Counted from the whole stretch's first letter, positions 1-61,337 are shown. The stretch: 61,337 bases of DNA, filler included, from Basidioascus undulatus (GCA_000826855.1; 8 parts of 8 records of this genome joined end to end with filler, not necessarily neighbours in it), one strand, 5' to 3'. Numbers and translations: made by a program. The notes: generated from the letters alone by a model not told the origin.

Positions 1-823
1 ACATGTCGGTGAAGTTCTGCGGGGCATCGGCCATTTGAACCTCCTGTCGAATACAGATGCAGCTTCAACCCCACATATGCGAATTACTTACCTGATTACG
101 GAGGCTGGTCTTCCTCCCGTACATAAAAAAGGTTAGCCTGTACGCCCTCAGATCGCGTTTTCCACCCGCTCACTCCTCAACCGCAACGCACCTTGCCTAC
201 CCCGCTCGGGCCTACGATGACGACCTTGAGCGTGCGCTGCGGCATTCTGACGGCGGGGGGACTAATACAGATAGAAGAATTTATATGAGAATGTATTGGT
301 GCGGTAGAGCAAGGAGGGTAGGACGGCGGCAGGGAGGAAGGGAAGGGGTGGTCAGATTCTGAGATGTAGGGAGGACGTGCATGCGGGCCACTTGCGCGTG
401 CTTGCCTTCGCTCCGGTGCTGACTCAGCAGAGCGCTATCTTATTTTTTTATCTTTCGCAACTTCCCGATATTTTGCGGATACTACTCCTCAATTGATCAT
501 ATAATTGAGAACAGCGCATGCTAGGCGATACGGACTGCCCGATCCGGCGCCAGTCATTTGAGTGAGGAACCCTCTCTGGGAGCTCGCTATCTTATCTTGA
601 AGCTGAAACGAATGTGCTTTTCGCGAAAGAGGTACCTAAAAGAGTTGCAAAGGCCTCCGATACTGGAATGTCGTCGAACCGTTGCAAATAGCTGCGGCAT
701 CCTTGCCGCCGGAAACGTCGGCGGCGGTGCCGGAAACGTCGCGGTGTCGCGCTCACCCTGCCTTCCCGTCACGCACGCTGGACGTTGCTCCTTTACACTC
801 ATCAAGCTCGGCTCGCAGTCAAG

Positions 824-3807
824 ATGCCTCCTCGCACATCTTTAGACGACGAGATGGACGCCCTCGACGATACGGGCGAGGGCTTTCCGATGCTCCCCAC
901 CCCGCAGCTGCCGAACGGCTCCCCCTCCGGCGGAGGAAGGCGAGGAGGGGGGTACGCACCGCTCAGCGGAACAGGTGCAATTCTCGCGGGGACTCCGCGA
1001 AGGCGAATAGCCGCTTTCGTAGGGTACGTCCAGTTGGCAATAAAGTGAACTTTCCCGGGTCTGAACTGACGGCGGGGACTGGCAGGCTGGCGGTCTTCTC
1101 CGGCATCGCCTTTCACTTCCTCCTCTCCCTCTTTGGCATCATTCGGCCATGGGGCAGGAATGGAGCTGTGGCACCTCCGGAGTATTTATCTCCAGGGGAT
1201 TGGCTGAGGACGAACGGGTCAACGCCGAAGGAGGAGATGGAGCTTGTGAAGCTTCAGGCGATGGTGGATGAGACTCAGGGATACCTTGTGCGGGATTGGT
1301 CGTGCGTTCCCTTTTCCCTGCATTCTGGGTGTAGGGTGACTCATGCGAAACTCTATAAAGATTGAATCTTGGCTGTGGGTGTATTCACCTTCGCTCACGT
1401 GGCCCACTGATTTTCGAGAGCGATCAGGGAACAACATGCGGTCCGTCTTCTAATCACCTCTATCCTGGCTATGCCGTCGCTGATGTCTTTTATTCACAGA
1501 TATATCATCGAGACGGGCCTTCTTCACGCCCAAATCCTGAATCGGACACTGGTTCTCCCTTCATTCGTCTACGCCCGCGCATGCGAGTTCAACAAGTTCG
1601 TCGCTTCCTCGAGCCAACAGCATCGCCTCGACGCTGACTCCCCTGCTCAACCCGAGCAGTGATGTCTGCGGCGCTTTCGCGAAGCAGGCCCATCGCGGTC
1701 AAGCTGTCGGTGCGCAATCGCGCGTCTACCCCAGGGCCGGGCCGGCGCTAACGACAGGTTCGTCTCAGGGTCGCACGAGTGGGACGAGCTTCCGGAGGAG
1801 GAGCAGCAGGCCTGGCAGCTACCCATCGAGGTGATGATCGACCTCCCTCATCTTCGGACGACCTACGGGCCGGTCATCACCACCCAGGAGTACCTGCGGC
1901 TCAACAACCTCAGCCCGGACCTCGAGGGTGAGCACCGCCGTTTCCAGTCCGCCAAGGTTCTGCTGACTATTCGGAACATTCAGGTCTAAACGGCTGGTGG
2001 CAAGGCCGATACAACGGGGACCTAAGATACGCTGCGCTGCCCAATTCGTTCGGTGTCCCGTTCACACCTGCTCTCCTTCGATGCTGCTTACACCGCTTTT
2101 CGACCCGCAGCGACTGGGACCCCTTCCCGATGGTGCGCGTCGACCGTCTGCACCCGCCCGGCCTGCACGACGAGCTCCAGCCGAAGTCGGACGAGGTCCC
2201 CGCGGGACTGGACGCCGAGCGCATCAAGGCGCTGTTCGAGGAGAAGAAGAGCACGATCGACCTTGACGAGCTGCGGTCGAAGCTGCGCGAACAGGGCTTC
2301 GAGCTGCCCGAGAACCCGACGGGCGCGTTGGAAGCGCTTGGGTTCAGGCAGTTATATACCTATGATCACATGCAGGTCCCTTTTTCTTTTCAAGTCCTTT
2401 CAAACGACGCTGACGAACTGCCGCCGCCGGGTAGTCTTGGAATGGACTTCTTGTACGTCAGGCGAGGGTGTCGTTTGGCTGATGCTTCGGCTAATACCAG
2501 CACTCTTTGCAGGAAGAGCCCTGTCAATCCCGTAACGCAGGTTGCAGCGGAGGGAAACCTGACTGGTCTGTGGGAGGAGGCTCACGATGTGACGGACAAA
2601 ATTCTGTGCGTCTGACTTCCGCTCTCCCGACCCATCTTCTTAGACTGATCGCTCTTATTCACAGGCACATCCGCGTGCGTCCCAATTTTGGCTCCCCGCC
2701 GGTCACAATGATAGCTCCTGACCGATAACCTGTTGTTACAGGGCGAGATCCACCTCTACCGGCGGGCCGGCTCTCTGTACTTCACGAGCCCCGAGCAGCG
2801 GGAGGAATTCCGCAACATTATTCTCGGCGACATGAAGCCGCTTCCGCGGATGTACGAGCTCGCTGCGAGGGTCGATGCTCGGATGCGGCAGAAGACCGAG
2901 GGCCGTGCTTGGATGTAAGTCTTACCATTCTGGTACCGCTCGCGAGAAGACATTGCAGACACTGACGAGAAGTCGCTCAGGACTGCTCACATGCGAAGAG
3001 GTACATGCTTGACCCCCTGTACAATGCAGGTGCTGACGTTTTGCGCCCGCAGGCGACTTCGTGAGGCACGGATGGGCGATGGAGGGCGAGGTGCGTCTTG
3101 CGCCGTCGATCGTTGACCTTCTTCGTCGTTCTGACCTCTGGGCTCTCCTGCAGTCATTCGAGAAGCACGCAGACAGGATCAAGCGCCGCCTGAGCAAGGG
3201 GCAGAAGATCTTGGCGGCCAACCCGTCTCTCTTGCGACCAGCGCCGGGCGGGGACACCGTTCCGCCCGCGCCCGCGCCAGGAGACCCCTTCTACGTCGCG
3301 ACGGACGAGCGAAACGCGACGAACCTCGACTACCTGCGCTCTATCGGCGGTGTCGTGCTTTCCGACGTGCTCACCACTTCCGATCGAGTGAGTCTCAACG
3401 TTGATCTGATGTCGGTTGAACAGACGGAAACTGACGATGCGAGCACTCAAGGATTACTTCGGCCCGATGGCCGTCTTCACCGACGTCCTTGCTCTTCTCG
3501 AGCAGGTTATCATGTCGCATGGTACGGGGTTCGTTTCTTCCTGTCCACTGATTCAGCCTCTGACTCAGCTATTACGTTCCAGGCGCGTATTTCTACGGAC
3601 ATGTGAGTCGTGATAGCCATGGGAGGTGGAATGAGGAATATACAACTGACGTTTCCACGCTTTTGCAGGCATTATCATCGGTTGCCGGTGGGGTCGGTAA
3701 GTTCGGATGGCTCCAAATTCTCGCTGGGTGAGCGCTGACACCTTTTCCCCGCAGTCAATTTGCGCGAGGCAGCCGGATACGATCCCCGAACCAGGCTAAT
3801 AGATTAG
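824..3807 (+). CDS. O-fucosyltransferase-family (GT-B fold, POFUT/PF10250-like) type II membrane glycosyltransferase, multi-exon
   Basis: Spliced translation gives an N-terminal TM segment, then GYLVRDWS-LNLG-WNNMR-YIIETGLLHAQILNRTLVLPSFVYARACE, AHMRRGDF, PFYVATDE and LEQVIMSHG. It ends YDPRTRLID* (TAG 3805-3807). The reconstruction uses micro-exons of 14, 13 and 10 nt and a probable GC donor at 2372. Confidence 0.75.
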
Positions 3808-7481: not shown

Positions 7482-10400
7482 ATGCTGGGGGATAAGCACA
7501 TAACAGTAAATGGGGCAGCCGTCGGAGTTGAAGCAGTCGCGCTCGGCGTCGTGACTTCCATTGGTAGTTACGCCCGCATTCCTGTCTCGAAAAGAGTGGC
7601 TAACTGAACAAGCTTCAAAAAAGGTGGATTCCTCTTCGGCTACGACACCGGTCAAGTGAGTGGTTCCCAGAACTCAGCGCCCTAAGAAACTGACGGTGTC
7701 TACGCTTTTCCAGATCTCGGGCATGCTGCTCCTGGAGGACTTTTTCGAGCGATTTGCTGAACAGCAAGAGGACGCTTACGCCAATTCAACGGGAAATATC
7801 GAGTCTGCTCGTCAGTCTAATGTCAATCGGTGAGCACCTTGCCTTACTACTGAGTAAGATTGTATGAATAATGTGTTCTTAAAGGCACTTTGTTTGGTGC
7901 GCTCGCGGGATCATACACGTAAGTGAGAGTGACGAGCAAGGAAAAGTGCTCACTAATGCTTTGTCTGTAGGGCGGATTGGTTGGGCAGGAGGAACTCGTT
8001 GGCTTTCTGGGTCGTCATCTTCATCCTGGGCAACGTTGTTCAGGTAAGTGGGAGAGGAGCCGCTGACAAGCGAACAATGCCTGATATTGTGCGGCATGCT
8101 GCAGATTACCGCCATGCAATCCTGGGTGCACATGATGATGGGTCGATGGTTCGCCGGTTGGGGATGTACGGTCTTCCCTTGTGCAGGTCTTGCCTCACAC
8201 GCTCACGCTCAATCAGGAATTAGAGGCGGACTGTCGATCGGAGTGCCAATGTAGGCGGAACTTGAGGCTGTAGTGAGCATGTCTGACCCCGTCGTTCTTT
8301 TACAGGTTCCAGAGCGAGACATCCTCCAAAGAGATCCGCGGTACAGTCGTCGCTTCCTACCAAGTGCGTCCAGCTCCAAACTTCACGCTCTGTCGGGTGC
8401 TGACGGTGTGCCTGTTGGCGGAATGCAGCTAATGATTACCATCGGTGCTCTTTAGTACCGGATACAATCGCATCCTCAACTTTCTCACATCCTAATACTT
8501 CAGGTATCTTGGTTTCCAACTTGATCAACTTGGGCTGCCGAGACATCACTGGCTCAGCAAGCTGGCGTATCGTAATCGCCCTCGGCATTGCGTTCTCTAT
8601 TCCTTGGTAAGTTTCCTCCCTCCATTGACAAGTCCCGCTATCTGATAAGTGGTGCTGTCAAGGGCATTGGCGTGCTCCTCGTACCAGAGTCGTAAGTCAC
8701 CTCCCTCAGCCGGTGCGAAGACGTAATGAAGAATAAAGTCTTCTTCAGGCCTCGCTGGCTTCTTGCACGCGGTCGCCCTGGCGAGGCTCGCCAGGCCATC
8801 GCTCGTCTCCGAGGGGTGGACACAAAAGATGAAGCAGTTGAGGTGGGGTTTCTCATATTATATGTTGAGCGTACCGTAGCTCACGCTCTGTACTACAGGA
8901 TGACTTTGAAGAGATGCAGAACAAGATCCAGGAGGTGAGCTGTCCTGCTTTCTTCGATGTGTATCCACGGCTCAAGCGGTGCATGTTCAGGAACTGGCCA
9001 CTGGCGCCGATACCACCAGCTGTATGTACTGTTTTCGACGACCGGCGAAGCCTGTTCTAACTTGCACTTTCTTCTTCAAAGGGGCGGAATGCTTCACGGG
9101 AGTCGAAGGCATCAACCGCCTCATCTACCGCACTTTCCTGGGATGTGCCATCCAATTTCTACAGCAACTTACTGGCGTCAATTGTACGTCTAAAATTCAA
9201 AGGATTACATCTGGCCGTGGGACAGAGAGCAAGGAGTTATGGACGGCTTTCACCTCGCTGACGGTGACTCACCATCGCCCAGACTTCTTTTACTACGTGA
9301 GTTGTTGATTTCGCTCATGACTTGTCCGTTTATTTTATTCTTGTTATGCAGGGCGCAACTATCTTCCGCGCAGCGGGTATCGTCGATCCTTTCGTGACGC
9401 AGATTGCGCTGGGCAGCGTCAACGTCTGTGAGTAGGCTACTCCGACCGCTTCGGTTCCAAGGACTCACTTTCTCATATCTCAAGTCTGCACCTTCTTCGG
9501 TCTCTACATCCTGGAGAGGTTCGGCCGCCGCATGCCCCTTTTCTACGGAGGACTATGGCAATCGGCTTGGCTCTTGGTATTTGCTTCCTTGGGAACGGCC
9601 ATCAACCCTGAGGGCAACTCGGGCGTTGGAAGCGCCCTGATCGTGTGTGCCTGCATGTTTATTGCATCCTTTGCGTCCACCTGGTGCGTCCATGACCTGA
9701 TGAACGCAACGAGGGTGCTGACAGAAAAAATGACAGGGGCCCGGGAGCATGGGTTGTGATCGGAGTACGTCCGTCCTTGTATTCGCTAGGACTCCTATAC
9801 TGGCAGTTTACACTCTTTATATTTTGGTCCTGACGGCGAAGCGACTGCGCAGGAATCCTTCCCTCTTAGAACTCGAGCAAAGCAGGCCTCCTTGGCAACG
9901 GCATTCAACTGGCTGTATGTCGCGCCCTTTCACTTATACTTGCGTCTGCTTACACCGCGCTGGTGTTCAGTGGAAATTTCATCATCGGTGAGTCCTTCTT
10001 TTTTGAAAGAAGACCTCATAATTCACGGCTGGCTGTTTCGACGACTAGCTTTTGTCACACCCTACGCGGACGAGGGCATTTCGTACGCCTACGGATACGT
10101 TTTGTACGAGTTTAATTGCTGGCCCCCTTCGGTGAACGTAGCGGCTTTCTGAACCATGTCCTATAAGCTTCACGACCAACTTGATTGCAGCACTGGTCAT
10201 CTGGTTCTTCACTTTCGAGACCAAGGGTCTTTCGCTCGAAGCTGTCGATAAGATGTACACCGACCGCTCCCTCAAGGTAAGCGCAGTGGGCTTTCTGTGT
10301 TGGTTGAAACTGTATCGCTAACGCGCTTGCTCGAGCAGGCATGGCAATCCGCCAGCTACGTTCCTCCTGGATACACCTCCCGGAGTCAGCGCGACCATGT

Positions 10401-10569
10401 GAGTTCCTACGCGAAAATTTTTATACAGAAGAACAGTCGTTGACCGTATGTATAGGTACAGGATGCGTTTGAGGCCCCGATAACCGAAACGGACGCTAGT
10501 TCGGCTGTGCAACGCGGTGGCAAAAAGTCTGAAGGAGTTGAGGACCCTCTGCACGTGGAGAAGGTCTAA
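7482..10569 (+). pseudogene. MFS sugar porter (hexose transporter), ~24 introns, frameshifted in its 5' third
   Basis: Motifs: GGFLFGYDTGQISGM, LVSLMSIG, ADWLGRR, PMFQSE, PESPRWL, QQLTGVNYFFYYG, ERFGRR, WGPGAWVVIGESFPLRTR, ETKGLSLE. The frame breaks in exon 7714-7829 (116 nt, wrong phase), at ~8160 and at ~8605; the remainder is intact to TAA at 10569. Confidence 0.8.
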
Positions 10570-10915: not shown

Positions 10916-11768
10916 TCAATAGGGCTCCACAACCAGATACTGCCTGTACAGTTTCCTCTCCCCCTCCCTGACCCTTCCCGCCTCCCCAAGCTCATCCTTA
11001 AGCGTTACCCTGACCTTCCTTGGCTCAAAGAACGCCTCGTTCCACCTACGCACAAAATCCTCCGCCTTCGAGACCTTCATCGCCCCCATCTTGCGTTCGG
11101 CGAGCTCAGACACCATCATCCCCATCATTCCCATCGGCATTTTCCCAAGCCCGGATCTAGCGAGCCCCGAGAGCTTGCAGCGGGTCGAAAGGTCGCTAAT
11201 GAAATGCTGCCAGTCGGTGGGTAGAACGTCGTGAGGGGCGAGTTGCCAGGAGGGGAAAGTCGTTGAAGCCGGACGTGAGGTCGGCGCCGTTCGTGGGAAC
11301 CGAGAAAGGGGAGAAGGTATATACGTCCTGTAAATATCAGGGGGATATCATGTCAAACCTGTCTGCAGACCGCACATCGCCCGGCTAAGGACTGATACGT
11401 TGTGGTCGGGTGCCCCGGTGAACTGCACCGGCGGAGGGTCGAGAGGGTCCTTTTGTCCCCTACCATAATCGGTCACCTGCTGAACGGATGCGCCAGGCTG
11501 AAGGTACTGCTGCACGCCTGGAGGGGACGGCAGCGGCTGCAGCTGGGGGGACGGGAACGGGTATGCCTGCGTCGAGCGCCTCGGCGGACAGTATTGCTGC
11601 TCGTATGCTGCCGGCGGAGACGGGGCCTGGGACGGTGCGAAAGGGGGCCTGGTATGGCGGAGATTGATTGTAGAGAGAGTATTGGTTCGGCGGCGCCTAA
11701 GGCCGATACCCATACCCAGCGACCGCTGGCGGCCTGGACACGGCGAGATGTGCCTGTGTGGACGCCAT
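10916..11768 (-). pseudogene. Conserved basidiomycete hypothetical protein (HDV...DW / WNxxFFxPR family) with one frameshift
   Basis: Reads MASTQAHLAV.., DPLDPPPVQF, FSPFSVP..LTSGF, then LAPHDVLPTDWQHFISDL and WNEAFFEPRKVRVTL. The HDV/DW block is in a different frame from GFNDF (break at ~11255, TTTCCCC run), and the unshifted frame reaches TAG. Confidence 0.6.
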
Positions 11769-12646
11769 GTCGGCGCGGCGTGCTTCGCGTCTGCGTCCCA
11801 TTCGGTAGTCGACAGCGGGGGGAAGATTTCGAATGACAGAAAACTTAATGCAGAGTGTGTTGATGAGAGACAGAGGAGAGGTCGTCTTAAGACCTTTTCG
11901 TCCCGTCGGCTTGCCCGTGGGGCGCATGTGGGCCTTCCGACGGCATCACCAGCTTCGTCCTGTTGCGATCGATTGCCTAAGCCAGAGAGAACCGTTCTCG
12001 CGTGTTACGACCTAAATACATCATTTCAGTGGTGAAGTATGTAGGAGCAAGTTGAAGTAGCTCCCTGAGGACGAGCCCAAGCAGCTGCAGGGTGAAGCAG
12101 TGCCGGCGGCCCGGGAGGCAGTGCATGTAACGTAGTAGAAACAAGTCACAACCACATGTTCTTGCTAGGTAATGATGACTTCAACTGGACTGCACACACA
12201 GTTAAAAGCAGACATGCTCAATGCCTAGCGTTATCTGATTGAGGTGAGGGTCGACCACGCCGGCTGCGGAGAGGTCCCTATACATTGAATACGATTCTTT
12301 AGGGTCTTAGAGTCAAATAGTAATAAGATTATGTGGTGCTGATAGTGAATACGAGTGAGTACAGTAAAAGCCGGACGCAACCGTTCGTCTTCTGGCTTTC
12401 GCACCCGCTGCTCCGGCTCCCATTGACCGTCCCGGCTCCAGTCACCAGGCTTCGGGCAGACTTGCGCATGAAGCCCGCGAAAGTAATGGATTGTAGGCTA
12501 CTTTCGCATAAAAACCGCGAGTCTTGAACATCGCAGCCATCCTGTTTGCGGCACAGGTTCTTTAAATGCAAATGTTTCATTCTTAAATCGAGTCTACCGA
12601 CCCCTCGTCCCGCTACACCCCGTTCCGTCAAACCACCTTCATTCCC

Positions 12647-14326
12647 TTAAGAGCTCAGCTCCATATCGAAGACAATCTTGCGCGCCTTCCGCTGATCGAA
12701 CATCGTGTACGCCTCGGGGGCCTTGCTGAGCGGCATGCGATGCGAAACGAAGCCGTCGAACGCGCCTGATGCGGACGCCTTTTGCAGAGCGGCGAGCGCG
12801 GTGGGGAAGATACCTCGGACTATTCAAGGGAGGAGGATGAGGTAGATAGGCCAGCCATTATGGTCGGAACGAAGAGCAGGAGCGACGAAGGGCTCGGGCA
12901 ATAAAAAGGAAAAATGGGCGTACCGGGACAGCGGCCGAACTGGAGTCTGCGGTGGTTCGGCCATTTCAGTCACAACTGAGTCAGAGGAAAGGGGAGAGCG
13001 GGAGGAAACAGATTAACAGCGTACTTCACGTTCTTGTCGTATGCCTGAGCGCCAGTGATTGGGATCGCCGCGTTATGCACGCCTGTACAACAACCGACCT
13101 CGTAAGCAGAGGCTGCTGCTGTAAACGGAGGGAAATGCCGGGACGTACCAACGCTCACAATGGACCCAAAAGGCCTGACAAGCTCATACGCGAGCTTCAG
13201 CGCGCTCTCATGGCCGACAATCTCGAGCACGACGTCCGCGCCGCGGCCTTCGGTAGCATCGTGCACGGTCGCAACGGTCGGAGAGGCGAGGGGCAGGGGG
13301 TGGGCGCCGTGACGCTTTGCTTGAGCTGCGGGAAAAAAGGGAAGATCCGAGGTTGGTATACGTGCACAGGAAGACGGAAAGTTGGGAGGAAGAGGTTCGA
13401 GAAGACGCACCGAGACGCTCATCGACCGAGTCGATCGCGTAGACGCGCTTGACGCCAAACCCGCTAGCGGCAGAGACCGCGCAAAGGCCTACGGGTCCAC
13501 AGCCGACGACGACAATGGTCGTGCTGGCGAGCGTCTCCGGAGAAAGGTGAGAGAGTGCGGAATGCGCTGCGTAGAAGCCGGTCGTCCAGACGTCGCCTGG
13601 TATCCGTGGAGGAGAGTTAGAAGAGGGCAGAAGCCAAGGAATTGGAAGTTCGGAACGGACCCATGAGAAGCAGGTGCTCTTCAGGGATGCTGGGGGGCGA
13701 CTTAATGAGAGTGGTACCTATGAGAGAAGCCTTTCAGCACGATTGCAGAAACGGGGCAGCAGTCCAAGGGAAAAACGCACTCGCAAAAGGTACACGAACA
13801 TATTCGGCCTGGGCGCCGTCGAGCTTTTCGCAGCCGAACAGTATGTTATGCTCGCAGCGCGAGGTGAGGCCGCGGGTGCAGTACCAGCACTCGCCGCAGG
13901 AGACTGTAAACGGCGAGAGGACGCGGTCCCCCTTCTGCAGACCCTGGACGTCGGACCCGACCTCCTCGACTACCCCCACAAACTCGTGCCCCTTCAGACA
14001 AACGGTATTGAGCGAACGGCCACGCAGAGCATTGAAGGAAGACGAAAGCTCACGGGGATGAAGCCGGTCCCGCACTCCTCGTGGCCCCGGTAGCCGTGCA
14101 AGTCTGATCCGCACAACCCTGCTATGGATATGCGGATTACAGCGTCGGTGCTTTTTTGTACTCGTGGGACCGGCCGGCGGGAGACAGCGATCTTGCCCGG
14201 CCCTACGAAGACAGACGCGAGCGCAGAATCAGTTGAGGACATGGTCAACAGCAAATCAGCAGCGATCTTCCGCTGACCTTCGAAGATAGCCGCGAGCATG
14301 TAGTTAGAAGAATCAGAGGAGGACAT
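12647..14326 (-). CDS. Zn-dependent medium-chain alcohol dehydrogenase (formaldehyde-dehydrogenase-like MDR)
   Basis: Motifs: GLCGSDLH, GHEFVG, structural-Zn CGECWYC...C, GAQAEYVRVP, Rossmann VVGCGPVG. All traced exons are in frame to TAA at 12647. There are two in-frame ATGs (14326 and 14242). Confidence 0.9.
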
Positions 14327-14840: not shown

Positions 14841-16087
14841 ATGCAGCCCACCAGCCCCAGTTTACCCTTAGAGATCTACTCGCTCATTATCAACAACCTC
14901 ATCGAGGACTACACTAATGTCGGCGACGTCCAATTTCCTGCGGTCGAGGTCCGCGAGACGCTCCGAGCTCTCAGCGCTTCGACCCGCACGCTGCGCCGGA
15001 TGACCGCACCCGTGCTGCGCAGAGACGCCTGGGTGCGCACGGAGGAGGACATTGGGATGATGGAGAGGGGCTCGGGGGGCTGGCTGAGTCGCGTGAAGTA
15101 CGTCGTGAATCATTATCTTACGAGAAAGCGTACTTCTGACGAGCACCTACGACAGCCATCTCCGCCTGTCCATCATTCCATCTTCACTAGCGTCCCTCAC
15201 CCCACGCCTCTCGACTCTCACCAACCTCACCTGGAGTGCCAGCGCCGGCACCTCAGACGGCGCAGCATCTCCGCCTCAGACCCCTCCCTCAGCGCTCTTC
15301 GCGTCCTGCCCGCGTCTCATGCGCGTGACGGCCAGCTCGAGCTCTGAAGCGCGCATGCGCTGCTTTCTCCTCACGCTCGTGGACTGCAAGTCGCTCACCT
15401 CGCTCCGCATCTCCCTCTCGAAGGAGGAATTGGCGATGAAGACGCTCGAGGCTGTGGCAGAGCTGGTGGAAGGGCTGCGCGAGCTAGTCGTCGAGACGCG
15501 GGACGGGGACTGGGGTTTCGGGTCGGAGGTGCGTTTGCGTTCTATTAGCCATTTGCTCTCTCTTCTCTTTACCTGACTACGCTCCGTCTCTCACTCAGCG
15601 GAACTGCGCCCTCGCTCTCGCCCCCCTCCGATCCCTGTCCTACCTCCGGCTCCCGATCTCAACCTACGCCAAGCCCTCTCACGTCCCTTCCCCCCACCCT
15701 TCCTTCCACCAGCCCCTCACTATCGCCGACGACACTCTGGACGTCCAAGCGCTGCAGACGCTCGCCGAGACGTCGACCGCCCCGCCCGAAACAATTGCGC
15801 ACTTCACGGAGCTGCTCGCCGAGTACGCCTCGGCGCGGGAGCGCTTGGCTGAGACGCAGCGGGCCGCCGCGGAGGCGCGGCGCGAGTGGGAGGCAAGCGT
15901 GCTCGATCTGCGGAGGAAGCAGAGCGAGCTCTTCTTTTCGGTCTTGCCCGGGCTTGAGAGGATCGCATGGGACGTCCCTGGCTGTGGGATGAGAGTGTGG
16001 CACGCACAGAGGGATAAGTGCAAGAAGCTCTCGGTGGAGATGGAGGACGCCGAGGGTTTTTATAGAGAGTTCGCGGCGCGGAGATGA
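14841..16087 (+). CDS. F-box-like protein, 3 exons
   Basis: N-terminal PSLPLEIYSLII...TLRALS..RTLRRMTAPVL pattern followed by LRR-like LTSLRIS/LRELVV segments. Exons splice in frame to TGA at 16087. Confidence 0.55.
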
Positions 16088-44271: not shown

Positions 44272-44721
44272 ATGAGCGAGTCCAAGCCCCTTCTCACTGA
44301 GAAGGATCAGTCGGAATCTATACACCTGACCCTCGAAGTTGGTCGTCCTGCCGCTCACGCCCCGAAGCATGAGACCATCTCCGCCTGAGAGTCTGGAGTA
44401 GACCACAATCATCGCCATCATCCTCTTCTTAACCTGCCTCAATGGCTTGATCCAGATCTACATCAACTCCTTCAGCTTTCCCGTCTACGGAGACATGCTG
44501 GTCCATATCGGAAGGATCTGGGATGACAGCGCCTCTAGGTGCGTCTTTCATTGTGCCTGGAGAAGGAAGATGGACCCAAGGTCGCTAAGCCGCAGTGCGT
44601 GGTGGAAAAAGGCGGTTCTTTGTTTCTGGTGGTATGTTCTGTCGCGCTCAACCTCAATCCTCGGATGAACAAGGAGGAACCCAAAGCCGAGGCGGACAGG
44701 GCGACAATGGAGGAGGTGTGA
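44272..44721 (+). pseudogene. Possible decayed membrane-protein gene
   Basis: MSESKPLLTEK start, a TM-like TIIAIILFLTCLNGLIQIYI segment in a second frame, and a C-terminal block in a third frame. Confidence 0.25.
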
Positions 44722-46258: not shown

Positions 46259-46640
46259 CTTTCCCTCCCCACCCATCCATCCTAACCGACTTCCTCGTCC
46301 CCTCCATCAACCGTCGTGCCCTCCCCTCCCTAACGCTCCACTACCCGCCCTCCGCCCTCGCCAAAAACCCATACTTCAGGCCGCCGCGTGCGGGTCGCTC
46401 GCGTACCTAGGCGACTCCAAGACGCACGTCTTGATCCAGCACGGCTACGCGGAACTACTCGCCGAGGACGTGGCGAAGCTCGTGCGCGCCTGAGGGACGA
46501 TGGTGTACGCGAGGAGGTGGACGTCTTTGATGGCGGGGCGCATGTGGATGCGGGGATTGCGTTTGCTCTGAGGGAGAGGGGGGAGAAGAGTAGTTGGGAG
46601 AGGCTGTTGAAGGCTGTTAGATGCGATCGGGCTGCCGAAA
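46259..46640 (+). pseudogene. Alpha/beta hydrolase (HSL-like esterase/lipase) C-terminus with two -1 frameshifts
   Basis: TDFL..NPYFRP | AACGSLAYL..VLIQHGYAELLAEDVAKLVRA | LRDDGV..VFDGGAHVDAG..SSWERL. Breaks at ~46383 and ~46490, both in C runs. Confidence 0.65.
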
Positions 46641-46714
46641 GCGAGTGTGCACTGCGTGCGGGAAGGCACGCTGCGAGCGGCGACGGAATGCTTGTTCAAA
46701 ACACATGCATCCCC

Positions 46715-49700
46715 TTACCCCCTCTGCTCCCCCCGCGCAATCTTCACGTTCAGGGTCTCCAGCCTCCCCCTCACAGCCTCAATCATCTTCGTCCTGCTCA
46801 TCCATCCCACGCACCCAGTCAGCCTCAGCCCCTCCGCTCCTCCCCCTCAGCAGAAACAAGAAAGGGTAACACGCACTCCTCAGCCAGCTGCCTCTCCATC
46901 CTCGCAATCTGCGCCGAGCCCAACCCGCGCGGCGCCGAGCCCCCACCAACCACGTCCGGCGACGCGGCCTTTTGCTTCGCGAGGGCGACGAGCTGCGGTC
47001 GGAGGAGGGCGAGTTGGTTGGAGAGCTGTGTCGCGCGCCGGGCATTCTGTCAGCCGCGCGTGCAAAGGAAGAAAGATAGAAAAAAGGAAAAGGAAGAAGG
47101 AAGATGACCTCGACGCACCCTCGCCGTCCTAGCCTGCAGCGCCCTTCCGCTGCCCCCACCGCCCTTGATCTCCTCTCCCAACCTGCCCAGCTCCGCAAAC
47201 CACGCCTTCTCGAACCCGCTCAGCGTCGGCTGGTGCCTATCCATCAAGCGCTGGAGCACCCTATCCACACGCGCAAGCAGCTCCCTCTGCCTGCGCATCA
47301 CCGCGTCGACGCGTCCCCCCACAGCCGCCGCGCCCCGGGAGCGCATCTCCGCCGCGAGGTGCGCGAGCTCCGCGAGCTTGTCGAGCTGCCGCTCGAGCTC
47401 GCGGACTTGCAGGTCGAGACGCGCCTGGACGGCGTTGGCGGAGGAGACGAGCGCGCGGATTTCCGAGCGAGAACGCTCGACTGTTGTTCCGAGGAAGCGG
47501 AGACTGTCGGGCGTGATTTGGAGGGTGGCCGAGCCACCGGCGAGGGACGACGGAGGGGGGAGGAGGCGCGGCTGGGTGGGCTGCCCGGAGAAGGAAGAGA
47601 GGTTCGCGGGGAGGACGAACGGCTCGGTGAGGAGCGTCGCGTACGAGGGCTCCGTTGTCGTCGTGGTCGTGGTCGTGGGTGCAGCGGTGCTGGGTGTCCC
47701 CGTCGTGGGCCCGCTGATGGAGGGGACGCGAAGGGAGAGCTCGACGGGCACGAGCTGCAAGCTCGCAGTGAGCGCGAGGAGCGAGTAAGCGAGGTACACG
47801 TCGTTGACGACCTCGACCGAAACAACAGGGACGCTCGTGCCCCCGCCACTGCCGTCCGCGGCGCCGCGCGTATCCACGACCCACGCTACCTCGGTCTCCA
47901 GCCCACAGTGCACCGCGCGCGCGAGCGCCTGCTCGTCCGACCCTGCACGCGCGAACTCGCGCAGCCATGGGCGCATCACGAGCGCGTGCACGCCCAGGGC
48001 GTGGTAGACGTATTGCGTGTCGCGGTAGAGCGGGTCGGGGACGAAGGTCGGGTGGTTCGAGGGCGGGGGGGTCCCGCTCGAGGTGGAGGAGCTCAGGCCG
48101 AGGTCGATCGACTCGTACACTGCGAGCGCGGCCGGCTCGGTGCGGAGCTCCTGCACGATGAAGCGTCTGTGAGCGGAAAGAATCTTCGAATGAAAAGGAG
48201 CAGAGCAACTAACCTGCCGAGTCGCCCACCGCGCCTCGACCTTCTCCACCTCCAAACACACATCGACCTTCCCATCCTTATACGCGATCCCAATCACGCC
48301 CACGGGGACGTCCTCGTCCTCCCTCTTCGCGCCCTCGCCTTCGCCCTCCCCCTCCTGCGCGCCCACATAAAACAGGTCCGTCGCCTCGGTCTCCTCGTCG
48401 CCGAGCTCCCTCGGCGCAGGTTGCATCAAGAATGGGCCCTGCCTGAGTGGCGCGCCGACCCCGCGCGGGGGCGCGCACCGCACAGGCTCGTCAGTGTCCT
48501 CCTCCGCCCCATCGTCGTCGGCCTGGGAGCGTGACGCGGCGGACGTGAGCTGCTTGAGGAGCCCGGACGCCCACTTCAGCTGGTGGTTGTACCGCGTGGA
48601 GAGGACGTCGTCGAGCGGGGACGCGCCGGGGAGGACGGACGACGCCTGCGGGTAGAGCGAGGCCGCGTCGGCTATGGACGGGTCCGGCATGAGCTGCGAG
48701 AGGAAGTCGACTTTGGCGGAGGCGAAGGTGGAGAGCGCGTGGGCGTAGGAGGGAGGGACGAGGCTGGACCGACCCCTCTGCGAATTAGCCGCTTTCCCAG
48801 TGGTTCCGAGATGTGGGAAGAAAGACGCACGCATGCTTAGGCATGAATGGGCAGATCGCATATACGTCCCCGTTCCGCATCAGGCCGTAGACGGTGAGCG
48901 GGCCCCAGTCGCCCGTCCCGCTGCCAAGCGTGAACGACACAGCCTCGTCCGCGGCTCTGTCGTCCGCGCTGAAGCCGGCGCGCCGGCGCGGCGGGGAGGT
49001 GACGGAGGTGGTGGAGACTGTGCAGGTCGGAGAGGCGAAGGAGATGGCCTGCTGCGGCTCTTCGGTGTCGGACGAGACGTCGTACTCCCTGTGAGCGTGG
49101 ATATATGAGTGGGGGCTGGTGGGACGCGATGAAGGTGATTGGATCCGCTCACCGAAGGACACCATCAGCTGTGAGCACTAGGAGCGAAGACGCGCCCTCT
49201 CCCCATGGGTGCCAGTCGACCTTGGCGATCTGGGGCGAGGCGTCGACGGCATGGTAGTATTGCCCGACCTGAATCGATCTGTCCTCCGGTCCGCACCACC
49301 TCGTCAGGATCCTCACAATCCCAGGCAAAGAAGGCAGGAGACCGTACCTGCACTCGACGAGGGGCGTCATGAGCTTCGCGTACCCCGCCCGGGGCAGGAC
49401 GACGACTGCGAGCTGGTGCTCTCCAGCGACGGCAAGGAGCTTGCCCGTGCTGTTAAGCGACAGGGTGAGGATGGGGAACCGGATGTTCGGCGTATGGAGT
49501 GTCTGTGCATCCCCATCTCATCCCGCATCAGCTGCGTGCCATCCCTTCCACCCGCAAGCTCGCCGCCCACGCACCTTGTACGCGATCCCGCCCCCGAGCT
49601 CCTTGCCGTTCTTGGCATCCACCAAGCTCGCCATGCGGATCTCGTTGCCGACGGCGACGATGAGGTCCGAATTGCGGACGACCATCGCGTGCCGCCTGGC

Positions 49701-49844
49701 CGACCTGGCCGCCGCCGCCTTCGCGCTTGAAGACGCGGATGGGGCGGCGGGGAAGGCGGGGTCTGCGGCGGCCGAGGAGGGCGTGAAGATGGGGTGCGCC
49801 GACAGCTCTTCGAGCCACGGCTCGGAGATGTATGGCGAGCCCAT
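46715..49844 (-). CDS. NUP82: Nucleoporin NUP82/NUP88 (beta-propeller plus C-terminal coiled coil)
   Basis: HPIF, RNSDLIVAVGNEIR, LNSTGKLLAVAG..LAVVVLPR, KVDWHPWG, WGPLTVYGLMRNGDVYAICPFMP, QGPFLMQPAP, LSGFEKAWFAEL. Confidence 0.85.
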
Positions 49845-51321: not shown

Positions 51322-54300
51322 GTCGGGCGTCGGCCCGCCGCTCCGTGCGAGCTTGTTCGCGGCGCGCTTCTCCTTGCGCTCGCGCTTCTGCGCAATGACC
51401 TCGTTGATGTCTGCGCCGTCGTCCTCGAGAGCCTGCAGTGCTCCAGAAAATCAGCAACATGCCTCGTCGCGCTACGTTCTCAAAATGGGAAGGGCCTGAC
51501 GCACCTGGAGGAACTGGTCTTCCGTCAAGCCGTCGTCGTAGTGGACCGGCCCGCGCAGGCGCGCACCGCGGCCCTCCTCGCCGACGATCTCGTCCTCGAG
51601 CGGGTTGAAAACGTGGTCGGAGCGGTAGATCTCGGGGAGCTCGGCGTCGCTGATGAGCCGGCCGGGGTGCGGGCCCTTATTGCCGGCGTCGCGCCACGTC
51701 TTGAGCTCGTCGCGCTCGCGCTGCTTGTCGATCTCGGCGAAAATGCCGACCTCGGCGTCGCCGCGCGCGATGACCTCGTTCAGCTCATTGTCGTCGAGAT
51801 CGCCCGCCTCCTCCTCCTCCTCGTCGTCGTTGTCGCCCTCGAGAAGGGAGCGCTGAGGAAAGCAAAGCCGACAAGCGATCCATCAGTCCACCATTCATAC
51901 ACAATGTAAGAGGCCGAACCAACGCACCAGGAACTCCTCACGCTCCTCAGCCGTCGACTTGTTGTCGAACTTGCCGGCCTGGATAACCTTACCGTCGATC
52001 TCGAGCTTGTACTGCGCGCGCGCGAGGATCTGCTCCTCGACCGACTTCTCGGTAATGAGCCGGAGGATTCGGACCTCCTTCTTCTGACCGATACGATGCG
52101 CGCGGTCTTGCGCTTGCTGCAAACGGGCGGAGACACGATGTCAATGAACGTCCTCGAGTGGGTAGCGCCGTTCAGACTCACCAAGTCGGCGTGCGGGTTC
52201 CAGTCGCTGTGCAAGTCGACCAACGTCAGCACTGAATCACGCGCTACTTCACACCCTTCCAAACACGAAACCTGCTCACGAGTCGAAGATGATGACCTGT
52301 GACGCACCCCAACCCAGGTCAGCTTCGTGCCCCTTCTTTCGTCTCTCCCGACGCTCAACTCACAGTGTCCGCCGTCTGCAAGTTGAGACCGAGACCGCCA
52401 GCGCGAGTGGAGAGGAGGAAGACGAAGTAGTCGGACTCGGGATCGTTGTACATCTTGAGGAGCTGCGAGCGGTCGTCGGTCTTGGTCGAGCCGTCGAGGC
52501 GGAGGTAGGTGAAGCCGCGCCAGTGCAGGTAGTCCTCCATGATGTTCATGATCGCCGTCATCTGGAAGAAGATGAGAACCTGCAAGTCCCCCCCCCCCGC
52601 GCGCATCGTAAGCCAGTCAGCTCTGCTTTTTATCGATAAAGACAAAGCGGATGTTCCGACGACGTACGCGGTGACCGGTCGCCTTGAGCTTGGGCAGGAT
52701 GCGGTCGAGGAGCTCGAACTTGCCCGCGGTGCGGTAGAGGTTCGCGTCGGACGCCTTGGTCGGGTTGACGGTCGCCTCGACCTGCTCGAAGACGTAGGGG
52801 TGGTTGCAGATCTTGCGGAGCTGCATGATCGTGTTCTGCAGGCCGCGGATGCCCATCTTCTTGCTGCTCGTCCCCCGCCCAATACGAAATCAGACACTGC
52901 TGTCCGTCCGTCGAGGGATACAGAAAGGGGGAGAGGGATGACGCACCCCTTCGGGTCGTTGTTCTCCGCCGCGAGCACGCCGTGCTTCTTCATCTGCGAG
53001 TAGAGCTGCATCTGGAGGCCCGACATCCGGCACTTGATGACCTTCTCGACCTTGTCCGGCAAGTCCTTCTCGACGTCCTTCTTGAGGCGACGGAGCAGGA
53101 ACGGCCGAAGAACCTTGTGGAGACGTTTGATCTGTTTGTCGCCACCGCATCAATGTTCACGTTCTCGGGCGAATGAAGCGACGAAAAAAGGGGAAAGGGA
53201 CGAACGATGAGCAGCGACTCCTCCTCGTTGATCTCGATCTTCTCCTGCGACCCCGTGTTGGCAAACGGCGTGTTGAACCACTCGTCGAACGACTTGACCG
53301 AGTTGAAGATCTTCGGGAGGACGAAGTTGAGGAGCGCCCAGAGCTCGGGGAGGTTGTTCTATCGTTCCCGCCAACATTCATGACCTCGTTAGCATCGACG
53401 CACGAAAAAGAGGAGGAGAGGGGAAGGGAAAGGAAGGAATGAGGGACGAGGACGCACCTGGAGTGGCGTCCCCGTGAGGATGAGGCGGTACCGCGACATG
53501 TAGAATTGAGTGAGAGTTTGCGAGAGCTTGGACTCGGTATTCTTGAGGCGGTGGCCCTCGTCCATGATCATGTGCACCCACTTGTACTTGCTGAGCACGG
53601 GGCGGTCCTTGATGATGTACTCGAACCTGCACGCCCCACCCACGTCAGCACCCACTCTACCTTCTCGCTTTCTCATCGTCCGGCCTATCCCGAACTCAAG
53701 AGAATGAAAACATGGAACGCACGTCGTAAGCAGGACCTGGAAGCCCTGCTGCCTCATGCGGTTCTGGATCGCCTTGCGAGCGACGGGCGGGCCCTTGTAC
53801 ACCTGGACGGCGACGGAGGGCGCCCACTTCTCGAACTCGAGCGTCCAGTTCGTGAGTGTCGAAAGCGGGACGATGATCAGGTAGGGGCCGTTCTGGCGCT
53901 TCTTCTCGATCAGGAACGTCACGAGGGAGATCGTCTGGATCGTCTTCCCGAGACCCTACACATGCCACGTCCAGCCATCAGTCAGAACGTTCGTTCGGGT
54001 CGCGGACGCAGAACGGAGAGGGAGGAGAGGATCGAGGAGGCGGAGCGAGATGGAGGAGGGATGGGGGAAGGTAGGAAAGGGGAGAAGGCAGCAAACGATG
54101 CACCATCTCGTCCGCCAAAATGCCGTTCAAGCGGTTGTTGTAAAGCGAGATCATCCACTGCAAGCCCTTGATCTGATACTCCTTGAGCTGCCCTCCGACG
54201 AGGATCGACGGCTGCTGCGTGACCTTCTCCTGGATCCGGTGCGCGACGGCGTAGTAGTCGACCTGGTCCCCCATCACACCCACGCCGTATCAACGCACGG

Positions 54301-56219
54301 TCCCCTCCGAAGCAAAAGCCCAAGGCCAGAAAAAGGACGGCAAGGAAGGGGCGGGGGAAAAGAGAGAGAGGACTGAAAGCGCACCTTCCCCGTATCCTCC
54401 GCCGCATCATCCTGCCTAATCGCGCCAAACATGCTCTCGTTCGCGGGCCCATCCTCCGTCTCAAACTCCCCAATCATGCCAAGCTGCGCCTGCTCCTCGG
54501 GTCCAATCTCGTTCTGCTGGCTGACGACGGCCTGGGCGAGGGAGTCGAGGTACGCGTCCGTCTGCGAAAGGAGATGGGTGATGCGCGTGTCCTTGGCCGT
54601 GTCGATCAGCTTGAGGTACGCCTCCTCGTCGTCGTTCTTGAGCGCGCGCAGACGCTCCTTCGCGATTCGCTCGATCCGCTTCTGCTCCTCCTTCTCTACC
54701 TCCATGTGCAGGCGCACGACGGCGCGGCCGAGCTGTGTGCCACCCCAGAAACACTCATCAGCTTCCCATTCGTCTCCTGTCGCACGCCCAGCGGAACCAG
54801 CGCACCTTGACGCTCTTCGCGACCGCCTCCCTCCCGGCCTTCTTCAGCCCGTCCCCATGCGCGTTGATACTCTGGAGGTAGTCCAGATGCTTCTGCTTCG
54901 TCTTCTTATCGCGCTCCGTCCGTTGCTTGCGCTCGAGCTGCTCCGTCACGCGGGCGTCGCGGAGCGTCTGCTTCTTAAAGCGCCTGAACGCCGTGCGGTC
55001 CGTCGCGAGCGTGCTGGCGTGCGTCATCGAGTCGACGACGTCCTGCCTGAGCGCCTTCTGGCGCTCGAGCAGGCGCAGGCTCTTCAGCTCGATGAGCGCG
55101 CGCATCTTCGCGCTGCCCTCCAGCTGCGGCAGCTCCGCAGACGCGTTCTCGTCCTTGACGACGGAGGGGTCGGAGGGGGGCTCGTCGGAGATGAGGGATG
55201 GGAGAGCCTCGAGCTCGCGGATGCGCTGCTGCACGCGCGCGTCGACGAAGCGGTTGCGCTCCTCCGCAAGCACGTACGGGTCGAGCCCCATGGGCATGAC
55301 GGAGGGTATGACGAGCCGCTGCTGCTTGGACGCGGCGAGGGACGTCCCGCGCGGGGGCGGGCCCGCCTGCAGGTACGTGAACGGGTGCACGTACGAGTTG
55401 TACGGGTAGATCGCGCTGCTCGTGTCCGTCTCGAGGTACGGGCCCTCCTGCGGCGGCTCGGACGGCGCCGCAGGCTGCGCCTCCTCCACCTTCGGCGTCG
55501 GCGCAGCGCCGTTCTCCGTCTTCGGCTGCGCCTGCTGTTGCAGCTGCTCGCCGTTCTCGGCAGGCGTAGGCGGGGCGGGGCTAGCCTGCGCTACGGCAAC
55601 GGCGGCTCCGACGGTCCGCTCGCCCACGCCGTCCTCGGGCGGCGGGGGGGCGGCTCCGTCTGCGCTAGCGGCCCGCTCGGCAGCGGCGGAAGGGTTGAGC
55701 GCCGCCTGCTGCACGTCGGCGGGGAGGCAGGTTGACCTGTACAGAGAGGGAGAGGGTTGAGAAGACAGTGAGAGGGAGGGGGTTGGAGGGAAAAAGCACC
55801 TTGGGCGGCGGACGCCTGCACCTGCGCCTGCTGGTGCTGCTGGTGCTGCTGATGGGCCTGCTGCTGGCGCTGCATCTGCGCGAACATGCGGAGGAAGCCC
55901 ATGATCTGTACGAGCTCGGGGCTAGTCTGCTCGTTGAAGCCCTGGGACCGGAGCTGTTGCATGCGCTGTATGTCGCACGTCCCCGAAAAGCGACTCCCTA
56001 TCAGTCCCCCTGTCCCTGCGCGCACATGGAAGAGGGAGAGGAGAAACGCACGGCAAGCATAGTCTGGATGCGCTCCTTGGTCATGGACTGCTGGAGCTGG
56101 AGCATCTGCAGCGCCTGGGGCGTCGGCTGGGGCGCGCCCGCCGAGTAGCCCTGCTGCTGCTGCGGGGGCGCGGTGGGCGCCGGGGAGGCGGTGGGCGCGG
56201 AGGAGGGCGGTTGGGACAT
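51322..56219 (-). CDS. SNF2: SWI/SNF-RSC chromatin-remodelling ATPase (Snf2/Sth1/Snf21 type), 3'-truncated before the bromodomain
   Basis: HSA region ([19 protein letters not shown]), [83 protein letters not shown], SnAC domain. Confidence 0.95.
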
Positions 56220-57076: not shown

Positions 57077-58069
57077 CCCGTAGTTGGCGGTAACAAGAGT
57101 ATCGACAGTGGACGATGTTCGCGTCGTAAAAAAAAGCCAGGACGGAAGGACACTGGCAGCTGCCCAGCTGCGTGCACGACGGTGAGGTGTTCCCAGTCGG
57201 TGCATGGTGGAATTTGGCGGAATCGTTGACAACAGTCACTTTCTGGGCTTTGCAACAAAAGAACGAACACCGTTGAGCATGTGCAGCAAATGAGGTTGAA
57301 GCAAGTCCCGTCTACATGCTGACAAATTGAACAAGGGAGGCAACGCGAAGCAGGCAGTATGATCAAGGTAGTACTGTACCTTATGAGCGTGTCGGTATCA
57401 GCTAACAGGCTTACAGGACGTGCGGGATCTCAGATAGGGCAATAGAGATCAATGGAGTGCGACGTCCCTGCATTTCGTTGGGTGCGTGCACAGAGCAGGA
57501 GGACACGGCGTGGAGTTGCGTCTGTACAGCGCAATATGCAGGCCGCAGAGCACGGCTTTCAAACTGCACGCGGTGGAGCTGGGGCAGGGGTAGTTGTGGA
57601 ACGTCCAGTGAGGTGCTGGGAGGGGCGGCTCCAATTCGCCGAACATGAAGGGGAGACGACGGCGGAGGCGGGTTGAGGTGGGCCTCAAGGAAGCGGAGTC
57701 TCAGCGGAGAGCGAATCGTGGTGGAACAGAAGCGAGAGATACAAGGGAGGAGCGCAAAGGTGAGGGTACTGCAAAGCACTGCACAACACTGCACTTTACT
57801 GCCAATTCACACACATCAAACAGCTATCCCACCCGGCATTCATGAGTTTCAATTTCCAGGCGACATTGGGGGATAGTCAGCCCATCTTCAAGCCGCCCTC
57901 ACGCTGTATTATGACAAGCTCTCTCCGCGCTACTCCCAGAGAGTGCCTGCGATGGCCATGTCCATAGTTCTATGCCTAAATGGGGATTGAGACGTAGAAA
58001 CGTGGACGATTTCCCCTGAGCGAGTCGGTGATCAATTTCTCGAACCTCCCGCGCTTCATCAATATTAAC

Positions 58070-58772
58070 TCACCTATAAACAAGAATGTCACGCATGAAG
58101 ATGTACCGTCTCAAAGAAGGACTTCCCTTCACAAAGTCCTCTAAGAGCTTAATCGAGGTGGTGTCCACGGAAGCATCAAACAGCGAACGGTAGTTGTAGG
58201 AAGTAACAAGCACCTCGATAGCTGGTAGCGGGGTCACCCAAGCCAGGGCAACGTCCGCAGAAACGGTCTGGAAGCACTCCAAAAGCTTCAAGCAGTGGCC
58301 GTGCCGCGGGTTGAGCTCGGCCCCCGGGCAGACGAGCTCTTCGAGGCGCCTCAAATCGCGAATCGCATTCACCCACGTAGACAGACCTTACTCTCTCTGT
58401 TGTTCTATTCTCCTTGCTACCGGCCCATCCGAAGCTAGGAAGACCCCAAAATTATACGATTGGACAGTTGAGTTCCCTTGCGTGCGCGTGTTCTCCGTCC
58501 ACTCGACTTCTGTTGCGGCCCGAGCGTTACAACTTTGATGCGAGCACGGGCTTGCTCTGGAGCGTGTTGGAGAACGCCTCGAGTTCACATCGGGTAGATA
58601 TGACGACGGACTCGTAGGGCTTTGTGCAAGCGATGGGCAGAAGCGAGCGAGAGACGAGGCAAAGCGAGGCCAGGGTCTTCCAGTCGCTGATTTACGCGAG
58701 TGGGTGAGCGGGTTCGGCAGCAAGCTCGATGACGCCATGGTAGAGCTCGAGAGCAATAATCGGGATGGCCAT
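58070..58772 (-). pseudogene. F-box-like/LRR pseudogene
   Basis: MAIPIIALELYHGVIELA..PLA*ISDWKTLASLCLVSRSLLPIACTKPYESVVI..FSNTLQSKPVLASKL* has in-frame TAA at 58692 and ~58527, and a later frame change to IRDLRRLEELV. Confidence 0.6.
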
Positions 58773-60101
58773 GGTGTAGACAGCGAGTGGGTGAAATGCT
58801 TGGAGGGGATGAGTAAGTGAGCTCAGCGCGGAGGGGGAAGGTGGTGGAAGTGGGAGGGCAAGGTGCTTCCGTCCCGCGCGGCCACAGGGGAAACAAGCGG
58901 TCGCATCGTGTCGTGTGCACTCGGTTGTGGTTTCTGAGACCATCAGCGCCCTCTGGTTACTATTTGAATTTCCTTGTCGATCGTATGTGTGCTCGTCCAT
59001 AATATTATAGAAATTCCGCCAAAAGCCGCCCGGAGGCCACCGCGACAACACGTGCAGCACTGCACGCTATGACACATGCTCGGTGAAGTTGAGCCAGTTA
59101 ACTAGTGATGGAGACGCTTGTTCTGACATGTTATTTGGAGTGAGCAACGTATCTCCAACGAGGTAGGACTATACATTACCGCCTAGACCTAATGGGAGTC
59201 ATGTTGACGAGTGCACTGACGCTGGAGCGGACAATCCGAAGTTGAATTACGGGTCGCAGCAGCAGTTAGCACTTTTACCCGTATCGTTAAAAGTATGCTT
59301 ACCTGGAATATCCCAACACTCGAAAGGTCGTTGTAGCTTGCGGTGAGGTTCAGACTCTCCAGGTCACTCAGCGCGTCGACCAATGCAACCGAGTTGAGCG
59401 AGTTGCGACTCTCACGGCCCGCACGTTTTGACGCGATATCCGCTTCATGAAATAGAGGAAGGCTAGGTCAGTTACATTCTCAATCAAAAGTAGTCCTCAT
59501 TGGATTCGGAACACACCAGTGCCAGCGGCAGAGTCGCATTGTTGCGATAGGTTGCGACTGGATGGCAGTTTGGCTCATGAGTACCTACGAGGATGAGAGT
59601 TATCATCACGTCTTGAAGAAAGTGAAGATGTTTGTTGGAATCCCGGGTGAAAATCCCGCGATCACAGCGAGAAAGGTCTGGTGCGGTACAACCTTACGCT
59701 AAAAATCGCTAAGCGTGGGCAGGTTCCACGCAGGAGCGTCGGAGAGCTCGCAACGCTTCCAGAAGCCTGCCTTTGCTGGATATGTCGATGCAATATGCAA
59801 TCCAAGGCGTGCCAGGACTACATTCGCGGCCATACGGGTTCACAAGGGCGCGAAATGGTGTGGCCACACTGCGTAGCTCGTGGTGGCTCTGCTCTATCTA
59901 CAGGCTAACGAATGTGAGAAGGATACGACTGTAGCGAAGGCTAGGGTGCCATTACATTTGAGATTCTGCCGCGGTGAAGTGTGAGCTGAGAAGCCAAACG
60001 CCAGACCCAGAGGAGCTCTCGGAGACAGACAGACACTTCGAATCAAGCTGGCAATGCATCCGAAAACAACAACCCAGCAATGCAACGCACCAAGGGGCCG
60101 T

Positions 60102-61337
60102 CTAACGCTTGACCCAGGTGTACTGTGGGGAGGGGACATGAGGGTGAGTAAACGAACGGGACGGACGCAGGGGAGGAAATGAGTGAGGGGGAGGGAAGAG
60201 TTGTGGAAGAGGACGGAAGGGTAGGGGACAGGAAGGGCAGGGGGAAGGGAAGGAGGATGAAAGAGGGAAGACGCACGCGCTTGCGGGCCTTTGCGAGACC
60301 GGTCTTTTTCCGCTCCACCATACGCGGGTCGCGGAGGAGAACGCCAGCTGTGATGGGGTGGAGAAGCAAGTCAGTCAACTCAAGCCAAACACATGCTGTA
60401 GAAGCGGAAAGGAGCGAAGGGCGAAGGGAAGGGAAGGGGAGGGGAGGTGGGAGGAACGCGAACGCACCCTTCTTGAGCACCCTCTTCACGCCCTCGTCCG
60501 GCCCGAGCTCCTGCTTTTGGTCAATGTGGCCCACCAGCCCTTTCGCAATAGCGTGCGCGATCGCGGCCGCCTGGCCGGAGACGCCGCCGCCGCGGACGAG
60601 CGCGAAGACGTGGAACGCGCCGAGCTGGCCCGCAATGCGGAGGGGGTAGAGGATCGCCTCCCTGTCGGACGCGCGGGGGAAGACCTCCGCAATGGGACGC
60701 GCGTTGACGAGGACCTCGGTGGTCGTCGGAAGATCGGAGGAGGAAGAAGAGGAAGCGGAGGAGGAGGAGGAGGAGGGGGAAGGGGAGGAGGGCTTGGTAG
60801 GGATCATCCAGACGCGGGCGGAAGAGGTCTTGCGGCGGCCGACGGTGTAGGAGCGGCCGTAGAGGTCGAACTGGACGGGCTTGCGCTGGGGGAGGACGCG
60901 CTCATGTCCTCCGGGGGGGGAGTACTCGTCGAGGGCAGCCTCGATCTCAGCTACGATGTCTGCGGTCGCGTGGCCGGCGGCGCGCGCGAGGGGGAGGAGC
61001 TTGGCGAGCTCGGTGAGCATGCCGGTGAGCGCCTTGTACGGACCCAGGCGGAGGTGGCCGTCGAGCCTGGCGGCAAGGTCCGCCTGCGGCACCCAGCGCA
61101 GGGCGGTCGGCGGCGGGGTGACAGGCAGCTTGTGTGCGGGGAGGGCGAGCGCCTGGCCGAGCGCGCGCTGGGACCGGGTGAGGAGAGAGGAGAGGTTGGA
61201 GAGCGCTGAGGAGAGAGAGGGCCGCGCGGTGTAGTAGTAGGGCGAGGCGGGCTTGGGTGTCGGCCGGGGCGCGGTGGGGGCGGAGGAGGATGTGGGCGTG
61301 ATGGAGAAAGCGTAGAACCACTGTTTTTTTTCCAATC
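60102..61337 (-). CDS. MRPS9: Mitochondrial small-subunit ribosomal protein uS9m, 5' end at or beyond the window edge
   Basis: [57 protein letters not shown]. Confidence 0.93.

Follow-up and report, generated by a model that had tools for sequence, protein, structure and literature searches.

Broken members of expendable gene families in a fungal genome, probably left by ordinary birth and death of genes

The window analysed here is a 61,337-nucleotide stretch of DNA, made up of eight contigs (C1146 and C1149-C1155) with N spacers between them, all from one fungal assembly (G000; 2992 contigs totalling 32,128,072 bases); the contigs are unlinked, but they belong to one genome and not to separate organisms. 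Nine genes in it are broken, namely a hexose transporter (HXT), a DHA1-type MFS exporter, a DUF4646 gene, a putative esterase, two F-box-like genes and three relics, and they are distributed over 6 of the 8 contigs, as stated in the first-pass annotation of this DNA (at least six). The lesions are present in the DNA (5800-25790), the same families are hit on other contigs, and the core families sampled are clean. The broken genes are most probably genuine pseudogenes which arose from the ordinary birth and death of gene families.

Lesion calling was done by using a purpose-written spliced, frameshift-aware protein-to-DNA aligner with splice sites retrained on G000, and 107 of 132 single-base indels added to 22 apparently intact sugar porters were recovered by it. 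The hexose transporter (sugar porter) pseudogene (7482..10569, plus strand) contains about 24 introns and shares 66-68% identity with full-length fungal homologues. A frameshift was located at 7777-7795 with 12 of the 12 top references, and a -1 shift at 8603-8606 with 4 of 4 references and the trained splice sites. Three lesions had been claimed for this gene; these two are firm and the third, at about 8164 by manual reading, is probable, for an acceptor at 8225 could absorb it by alternative splicing. No in-frame stop substitution was found in the gene. The RNA run X3 gave no cover over 6467-10468, which was not taken as evidence on expression. In a FastTree phylogeny (34 sequences, 493 columns), a Pezizomycotina transporter clade came out as the sister group of this transporter with a support of 0.99, and two other porters of the same genome were placed with basidiomycete ones, away from it; with this thin sampling, the position may mean either that the gene is an ancient paralogue or that it was once transferred.

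The DUF4646 gene (10916..11801, minus strand) carries a firm frameshift at about 11253; reading of the frames adds a second one near 11640 and a stop codon near 11698. It is the conserved gene at 10.9 kb for which one lesion had been reported; it is indeed broken, and that count is too low by reading (3 lesions). Its partial RNA cover from X3, with no indel listed, does not formally exclude repair at the RNA level. The DHA1-type exporter pseudogene (32312..35435, plus strand) was read in three frames from the assembly sequence and shows the two lesions previously described, a +1 shift near 33555 and a -1 shift near 34354, and translation first runs into a stop at residue 268. Its intron at 33030-33089 is of the GC-AG type and is normal. 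No match was obtained in a homologue search with the DHA1 exon, and a search of its own genome gave itself and one weak match only, without a close paralogue. The 3' end of the putative esterase (46259..46693, plus strand; assembly sequence) likewise shows both reported lesions, the frame changing near 46380 and again near 46488; no Pfam match was obtained, and the name, taken from the first-pass annotation, is unconfirmed.

Both F-box-like genes described as broken do contain stops. The one at 41900..43200 (minus strand) has stops at about 43145 and 42893, with PF12937 below the cut-off, and the decayed one at 57900..58774 (minus strand) has stops and frame changes, with no Pfam match and the family unconfirmed. 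The several older relics mentioned earlier were also found, all judged by eye: one at 22400..23900 (minus strand) in which the frame changes several times and is interrupted by a stop, with no homologue, one of a small secreted-looking protein at 39085..39713 (plus strand) with a stop at 39318-39320 and neither a homologue nor a Pfam match, and one of a small membrane protein at 44272..44720 (plus strand) with stops and a frame change and no homologue. The first of these is covered over 22421-23832 by an unspliced RNA contig at a depth of 54.

Contigs of two DNA runs from two studies, X1 (depth about 17) and X2 (about 43), were compared with the window over 19,991 bases (5800-25790), and 0 indels and 1 substitution were found. 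Since both runs match without an indel, the lesions of HXT (base for base), of the DUF4646 gene and of the relic at 22.4 kb are real DNA and not assembly errors, and the earlier rejection of random sequencing error is borne out in this stretch. Neither an intact allele in the runs, within this stretch, nor indels in the sampled core genes were found. The single mismatch, at 24793 (G in the window, T in both X1 and X2), is likely to be an assembly base error or a strain difference. The run sequences are consensus contigs from which rare variants are dropped, and either run may be the source of the assembly itself, which lends something to the explanation that sequencing or assembly error, or missed micro-introns, created the apparent lesions. 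Many of the lesions affect one base within a short run, those in DHA1, the esterase and the F-box-like genes are read from assembly sequence outside the compared stretch, and an oddity at the PPM1 locus, described below, may be a mis-join. The softness of such calls is also seen in HXT itself, where 2 of the 3 lesions were masked behind weak splice sites in the first aligner pass. Error is nevertheless very improbable as an explanation: 20 kb is free of indels in both runs, which differ in depth and come from two studies, the core families are clean across tens of kilobases, and the HXT exon-3 shift falls between conserved motifs about 45 bases apart, a gap shorter than any of the 114 introns used for training (50-148 bases). 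Genes here have many short introns.

Pseudogenes are spread over the genome and affect the same families repeatedly. For the sugar porters, at least 26 loci were found; 3 of 26 are broken (the HXT of the window, one on C2690 and one on C1027) and 23 are without a consensus lesion; the C2690 copy (L026) carries at least 8 lesions. A first look gave 82 MFS_1 candidates. Nine MFS_1 loci, DHA1 included, were sampled, and two, DHA1 being one, are broken; five were alignable, and the four without a usable paralogue were scored as intact, while L093 is degraded in appearance. The second broken MFS exporter, on C158 (L089), has at least 3 frameshifts relative to an open paralogue, and a copy of a Zn-cluster-type transcription factor on C1237 (L123) is a pseudogene with 5 lesions and an open paralogue; the paralogues of these two dead genes are 62-69% identical to them. 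An aldo-keto reductase pseudogene was found on C1312 (L124). The family-level pseudogene rate is about 9-14%, roughly one in ten in transporter families. By comparison, the core sample of 21 genes gave 0 broken: 0 of 12 SNF2-family genes, 0 of 6 MutS loci, 0 of 2 aconitases, and an open MLH1; the MutS alignment covered the ATPase region, and MLH1 was judged from an ab initio model. The proposed comparison of indels in core and accessory genes by frameshift-aware spliced alignment was carried out on sampled families.

Several calls were discarded or are of limited sensitivity. Frameshifts seen with single references (L031, L034, L037, L059, L043, L047 and L094) were not repeated in all references and were dropped. 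For L033, 0 of 6 simulated indels were detected, and L011 could be aligned partially. Exon models came from a self-trained ab initio gene finder, which misses genes and proved inadequate for calling lesions: over whole contigs, its frameshift calls recovered 1 out of 8 known recent lesions, plus false calls, and were rejected as a genome-wide measure; those in RPB1 and RMT2 were overturned by explicit exon chains. An all-against-all paralogue search across 777 kb yielded too few pairs.

The most likely course of events is the following. Spare or niche genes (sugar porters, MFS exporters, F-box genes, transcription factors and reductases) would gain indels of 1-2 bases and nonsense changes, and such nulls would drift to fixation where, on the assumption of neutrality and redundancy, paralogues cover the function or the fungus does not encounter the substrate. 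From single-copy essential genes, purifying selection would remove mutations of this kind. Lesions would keep accumulating after loss of function, giving several per gene, and a presumably indel-rich mutation spectrum would let frameshifts exceed stops. Lesions do pile up within the same genes (2-3 in HXT, 2 in DHA1, at least 8 in C2690, at least 3 in C158 and 5 in C1237), which fits accumulation after function loss and not scattered error.

A number of observations weigh against this account of ordinary turnover. The excess of broken accessory genes is not significant, either in the full sample (5 of 35 against 0 of 21; one-sided Fisher P 0.085) or without the window genes (3 of 33 against 0 of 19; P 0.25). 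Ranking by hidden Markov model (HMM) favours intact genes in the sample, so the family rates may be underestimates. In a systematic sample of 353 kb, taken from the starts of 40 evenly numbered contigs and containing 89 predicted genes, 2 of the 4 genes with a usable paralogue were broken, and the predicted coding density was 30%, as given by a finder that misses genes. Within the window, 9 of about 26 genes broken is a high load, though five of these are relics judged by eye and the sample is a selected one. HXT has no close paralogue in the genome (51-58% identity), and redundancy is therefore not demonstrated for it. Genome-wide pseudogene rates in yeasts are low, with pseudogenes at 3.6% of genes in Yarrowia lipolytica (PMC2876123).

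Such figures could also belong to an incipient decay of the whole genome, in which a narrowed niche (host, symbiosis or clonality) or a low effective population size lets unusually many accessory genes die. The load in the window, the broken copies among sugar porters, MFS_1 genes, the Zn-cluster-type factor pair and the aldo-keto reductase pair, and the low predicted coding density in 32 Mb would all suit it. However, the repertoire of transporters is not seen to be shrunken, with 23 of the at least 26 sugar porters apparently intact; MSH4 and MSH5 (subunit names from sequence features) are open; the median G+C content at third codon positions (GC3) is about 0.85 in 67 predicted genes; and the totals of X1 and X2 (34.6 and 34.3 Mb) are barely larger than the 32.1-Mb assembly, with no excess of foreign DNA apparent. 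As so little room is left for host DNA in the runs, the organism was presumably grown alone. Decay of this kind is unlikely, though it keeps some weight, and a moderately raised genome-wide pseudogene load is possible. Its strongest form, an early accessory decay in a basidiomycete with a load (up to a third of genes regionally) far above that of free-living yeasts, an indel-rich spectrum and intact repair and meiotic genes, which would be a eukaryotic analogue of first-stage symbiont erosion, is likewise doubtful.

Nulls in essential genes cannot become fixed in any viable genome. The reported concentration of lesions in dispensable transport and catabolic genes was found as a bias, but not as the signal of a special lineage. 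Since every viable genome spares its essential genes, and since a bias towards transporters is already published for eight yeasts, neither host restriction nor a low-effective-size lineage is implied by the selectivity, contrary to what had been proposed. The bias of accessory over core genes is real, but it is an expected one under purifying selection and an already known pattern. We infer that host restriction has no positive support here, in view of the large sugar-porter set, the open meiotic MutS genes and the size of the DNA runs.

A mismatch-repair-deficient mutator would also produce an excess of small indels, and frameshifts do exceed stops in the recently broken genes. In the same direction, one duplicate pair (C1783/C1150, beside DHA1) differs by 13 indels and 66 substitutions in 1284 aligned bases, and one MutL-domain match was found (a lower bound), with PMS1 not located. 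The six MutS loci, which we take to be MSH1-6 from features of their sequences, have open long models with clean ATPase-domain alignments, and MLH1 is open over the sequence examined; no loss of DNA-repair or meiotic genes was seen among these seven. A repair defect is unlikely because MSH1-6 and MLH1 are open, and a mutator is a far less probable cause of the lesions than gene-family turnover.

The other genes of the window listed as frame-intact were found open by exon chains, alignment or ab initio models. Explicit exon chains are open for ACO2 (16391..19759, minus strand; 802 aa with 14 introns, of which eight are found among the RNA junctions listed), for ARL5 from its first long exon (20123..21341, minus strand), for the 3' end of RPB1, encoding its C-terminal domain (CTD) (25022..25811, minus strand), and for RMT2 up to 50976. 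Introns in ACO2, in RPB1 and in an intact F-box-like accessory gene (14841..16087, plus strand; 372 aa) were confirmed by run X3, which consists of spliced RNA; in ACO2 the GC-AG intron at 16658-16739 is spliced in RNA, and such introns, as also the one in DHA1, are easy to misread as lesions. The contig-truncated SNF2 (51322..56219, minus strand) was aligned to homologues without a consensus lesion, and a zinc-binding alcohol dehydrogenase (ADH; 12647..14299, minus strand) to its paralogue without a lesion. Open ab initio models with normal introns were obtained for SNF4 (25912..27575, minus strand; contig-truncated), the NUP82-like gene (46715..49843, minus strand), MRPS9 (60102..61337, minus strand; contig-truncated), GT, ZIP and roadblock. 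That accessory genes are broken and housekeeping genes intact is therefore a bias and not a rule, GT, ADH, ZIP and the F-box-like gene at 14841-16087 being intact. The SNF2 identities (77.8% to Sporisorium, 75.8% to Mucor and 72.4% to Blastosporella) suggest a fungus that is probably a member of Basidiomycota; of the placement by RPB1 and SNF2 that had been proposed, this much was reached by SNF2, and a finer position was not.

The PPM1-like locus (27945..29521, plus strand) had been listed among the broken genes, but it has an open frame of 341 aa with four GT-AG introns and no frame lesion. Only its C-terminal half matches LCMT1/Ppm1, and the N-terminal 130 or so residues are without a match, so that by sequence comparison the locus is classed as truncated or chimeric, not frame-broken. 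It is the sole LCM match found in the assembly; the end of contig C2535 holds a second PPM1 3' end which shares 35 bases with that of the window and then diverges, and either a partial duplication or an assembly mis-join may account for the locus. An inversion was rejected, as the reverse frames are without methyltransferase motifs. No match was obtained in a homologue search with the PPM1 exon, no credible match with the second exon of the locus against Atlas, and no alignment between a metagenome PPM1 relative (L105) and the PPM1 upstream region among the matches listed. Farther along, 31005-32310 is duplicated at 89-91% identity in C1783:1-1391; the duplicate consists of the 3' end of an acyl-CoA synthetase gene and the DHA1 upstream region and ends just before the DHA1 start codon, and in the window copy 13 bases at a border between exon and intron are tandemly duplicated. 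No excess of the kind expected from repeat-induced point mutation (RIP) was found in this pair (41 of 66 changes are transitions).

For annotation, a caution follows, that gene finders splice around recently broken transporters and the transporter counts are then inflated. If the load proved to be well above that of relatives, the genome would offer a rare view of a fungus at an early stage of reductive evolution and a pointer to abandoned substrates; among the titles listed in a literature search, none reported erosion of this kind for a basidiomycete. In eight hemiascomycete yeasts, 871 pseudogenes are reported; their bias towards transporters persists after normalisation, and the sugar-transporter family of Debaryomyces hansenii has 11 of them (PMC2876123). 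The likeness lies in frameshifts and stops in duplicated family members, a transporter and cell-periphery bias there and repeatedly affected sugar transporters; unlike in those yeasts, the genes here are intron-rich in a basidiomycete-like manner, and family rates were obtained from a fragmented assembly which gives no view of subtelomeric clustering. In Cladosporium fulvum, too, accessory genes die in an otherwise complete genome (2 of 6 GH78 genes pseudogenised, among carbohydrate-active enzyme (CAZyme) and secondary-metabolism genes), but a link to the biotrophic lifestyle is drawn there by comparison with a sister species, whereas here the sequence of one genome was used (PMC3510045). For Fusarium graminearum, 544 unitary pseudogenes are reported (PMC12311193). 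Bacterial endosymbionts such as Sodalis share the concentration of pseudogenes in dispensable functions, but almost 50% of the genes are pseudogenes there, as against about 9-14% here in the most turnover-prone families, 0 of 21 in the core and open repair genes (PMC7067036).

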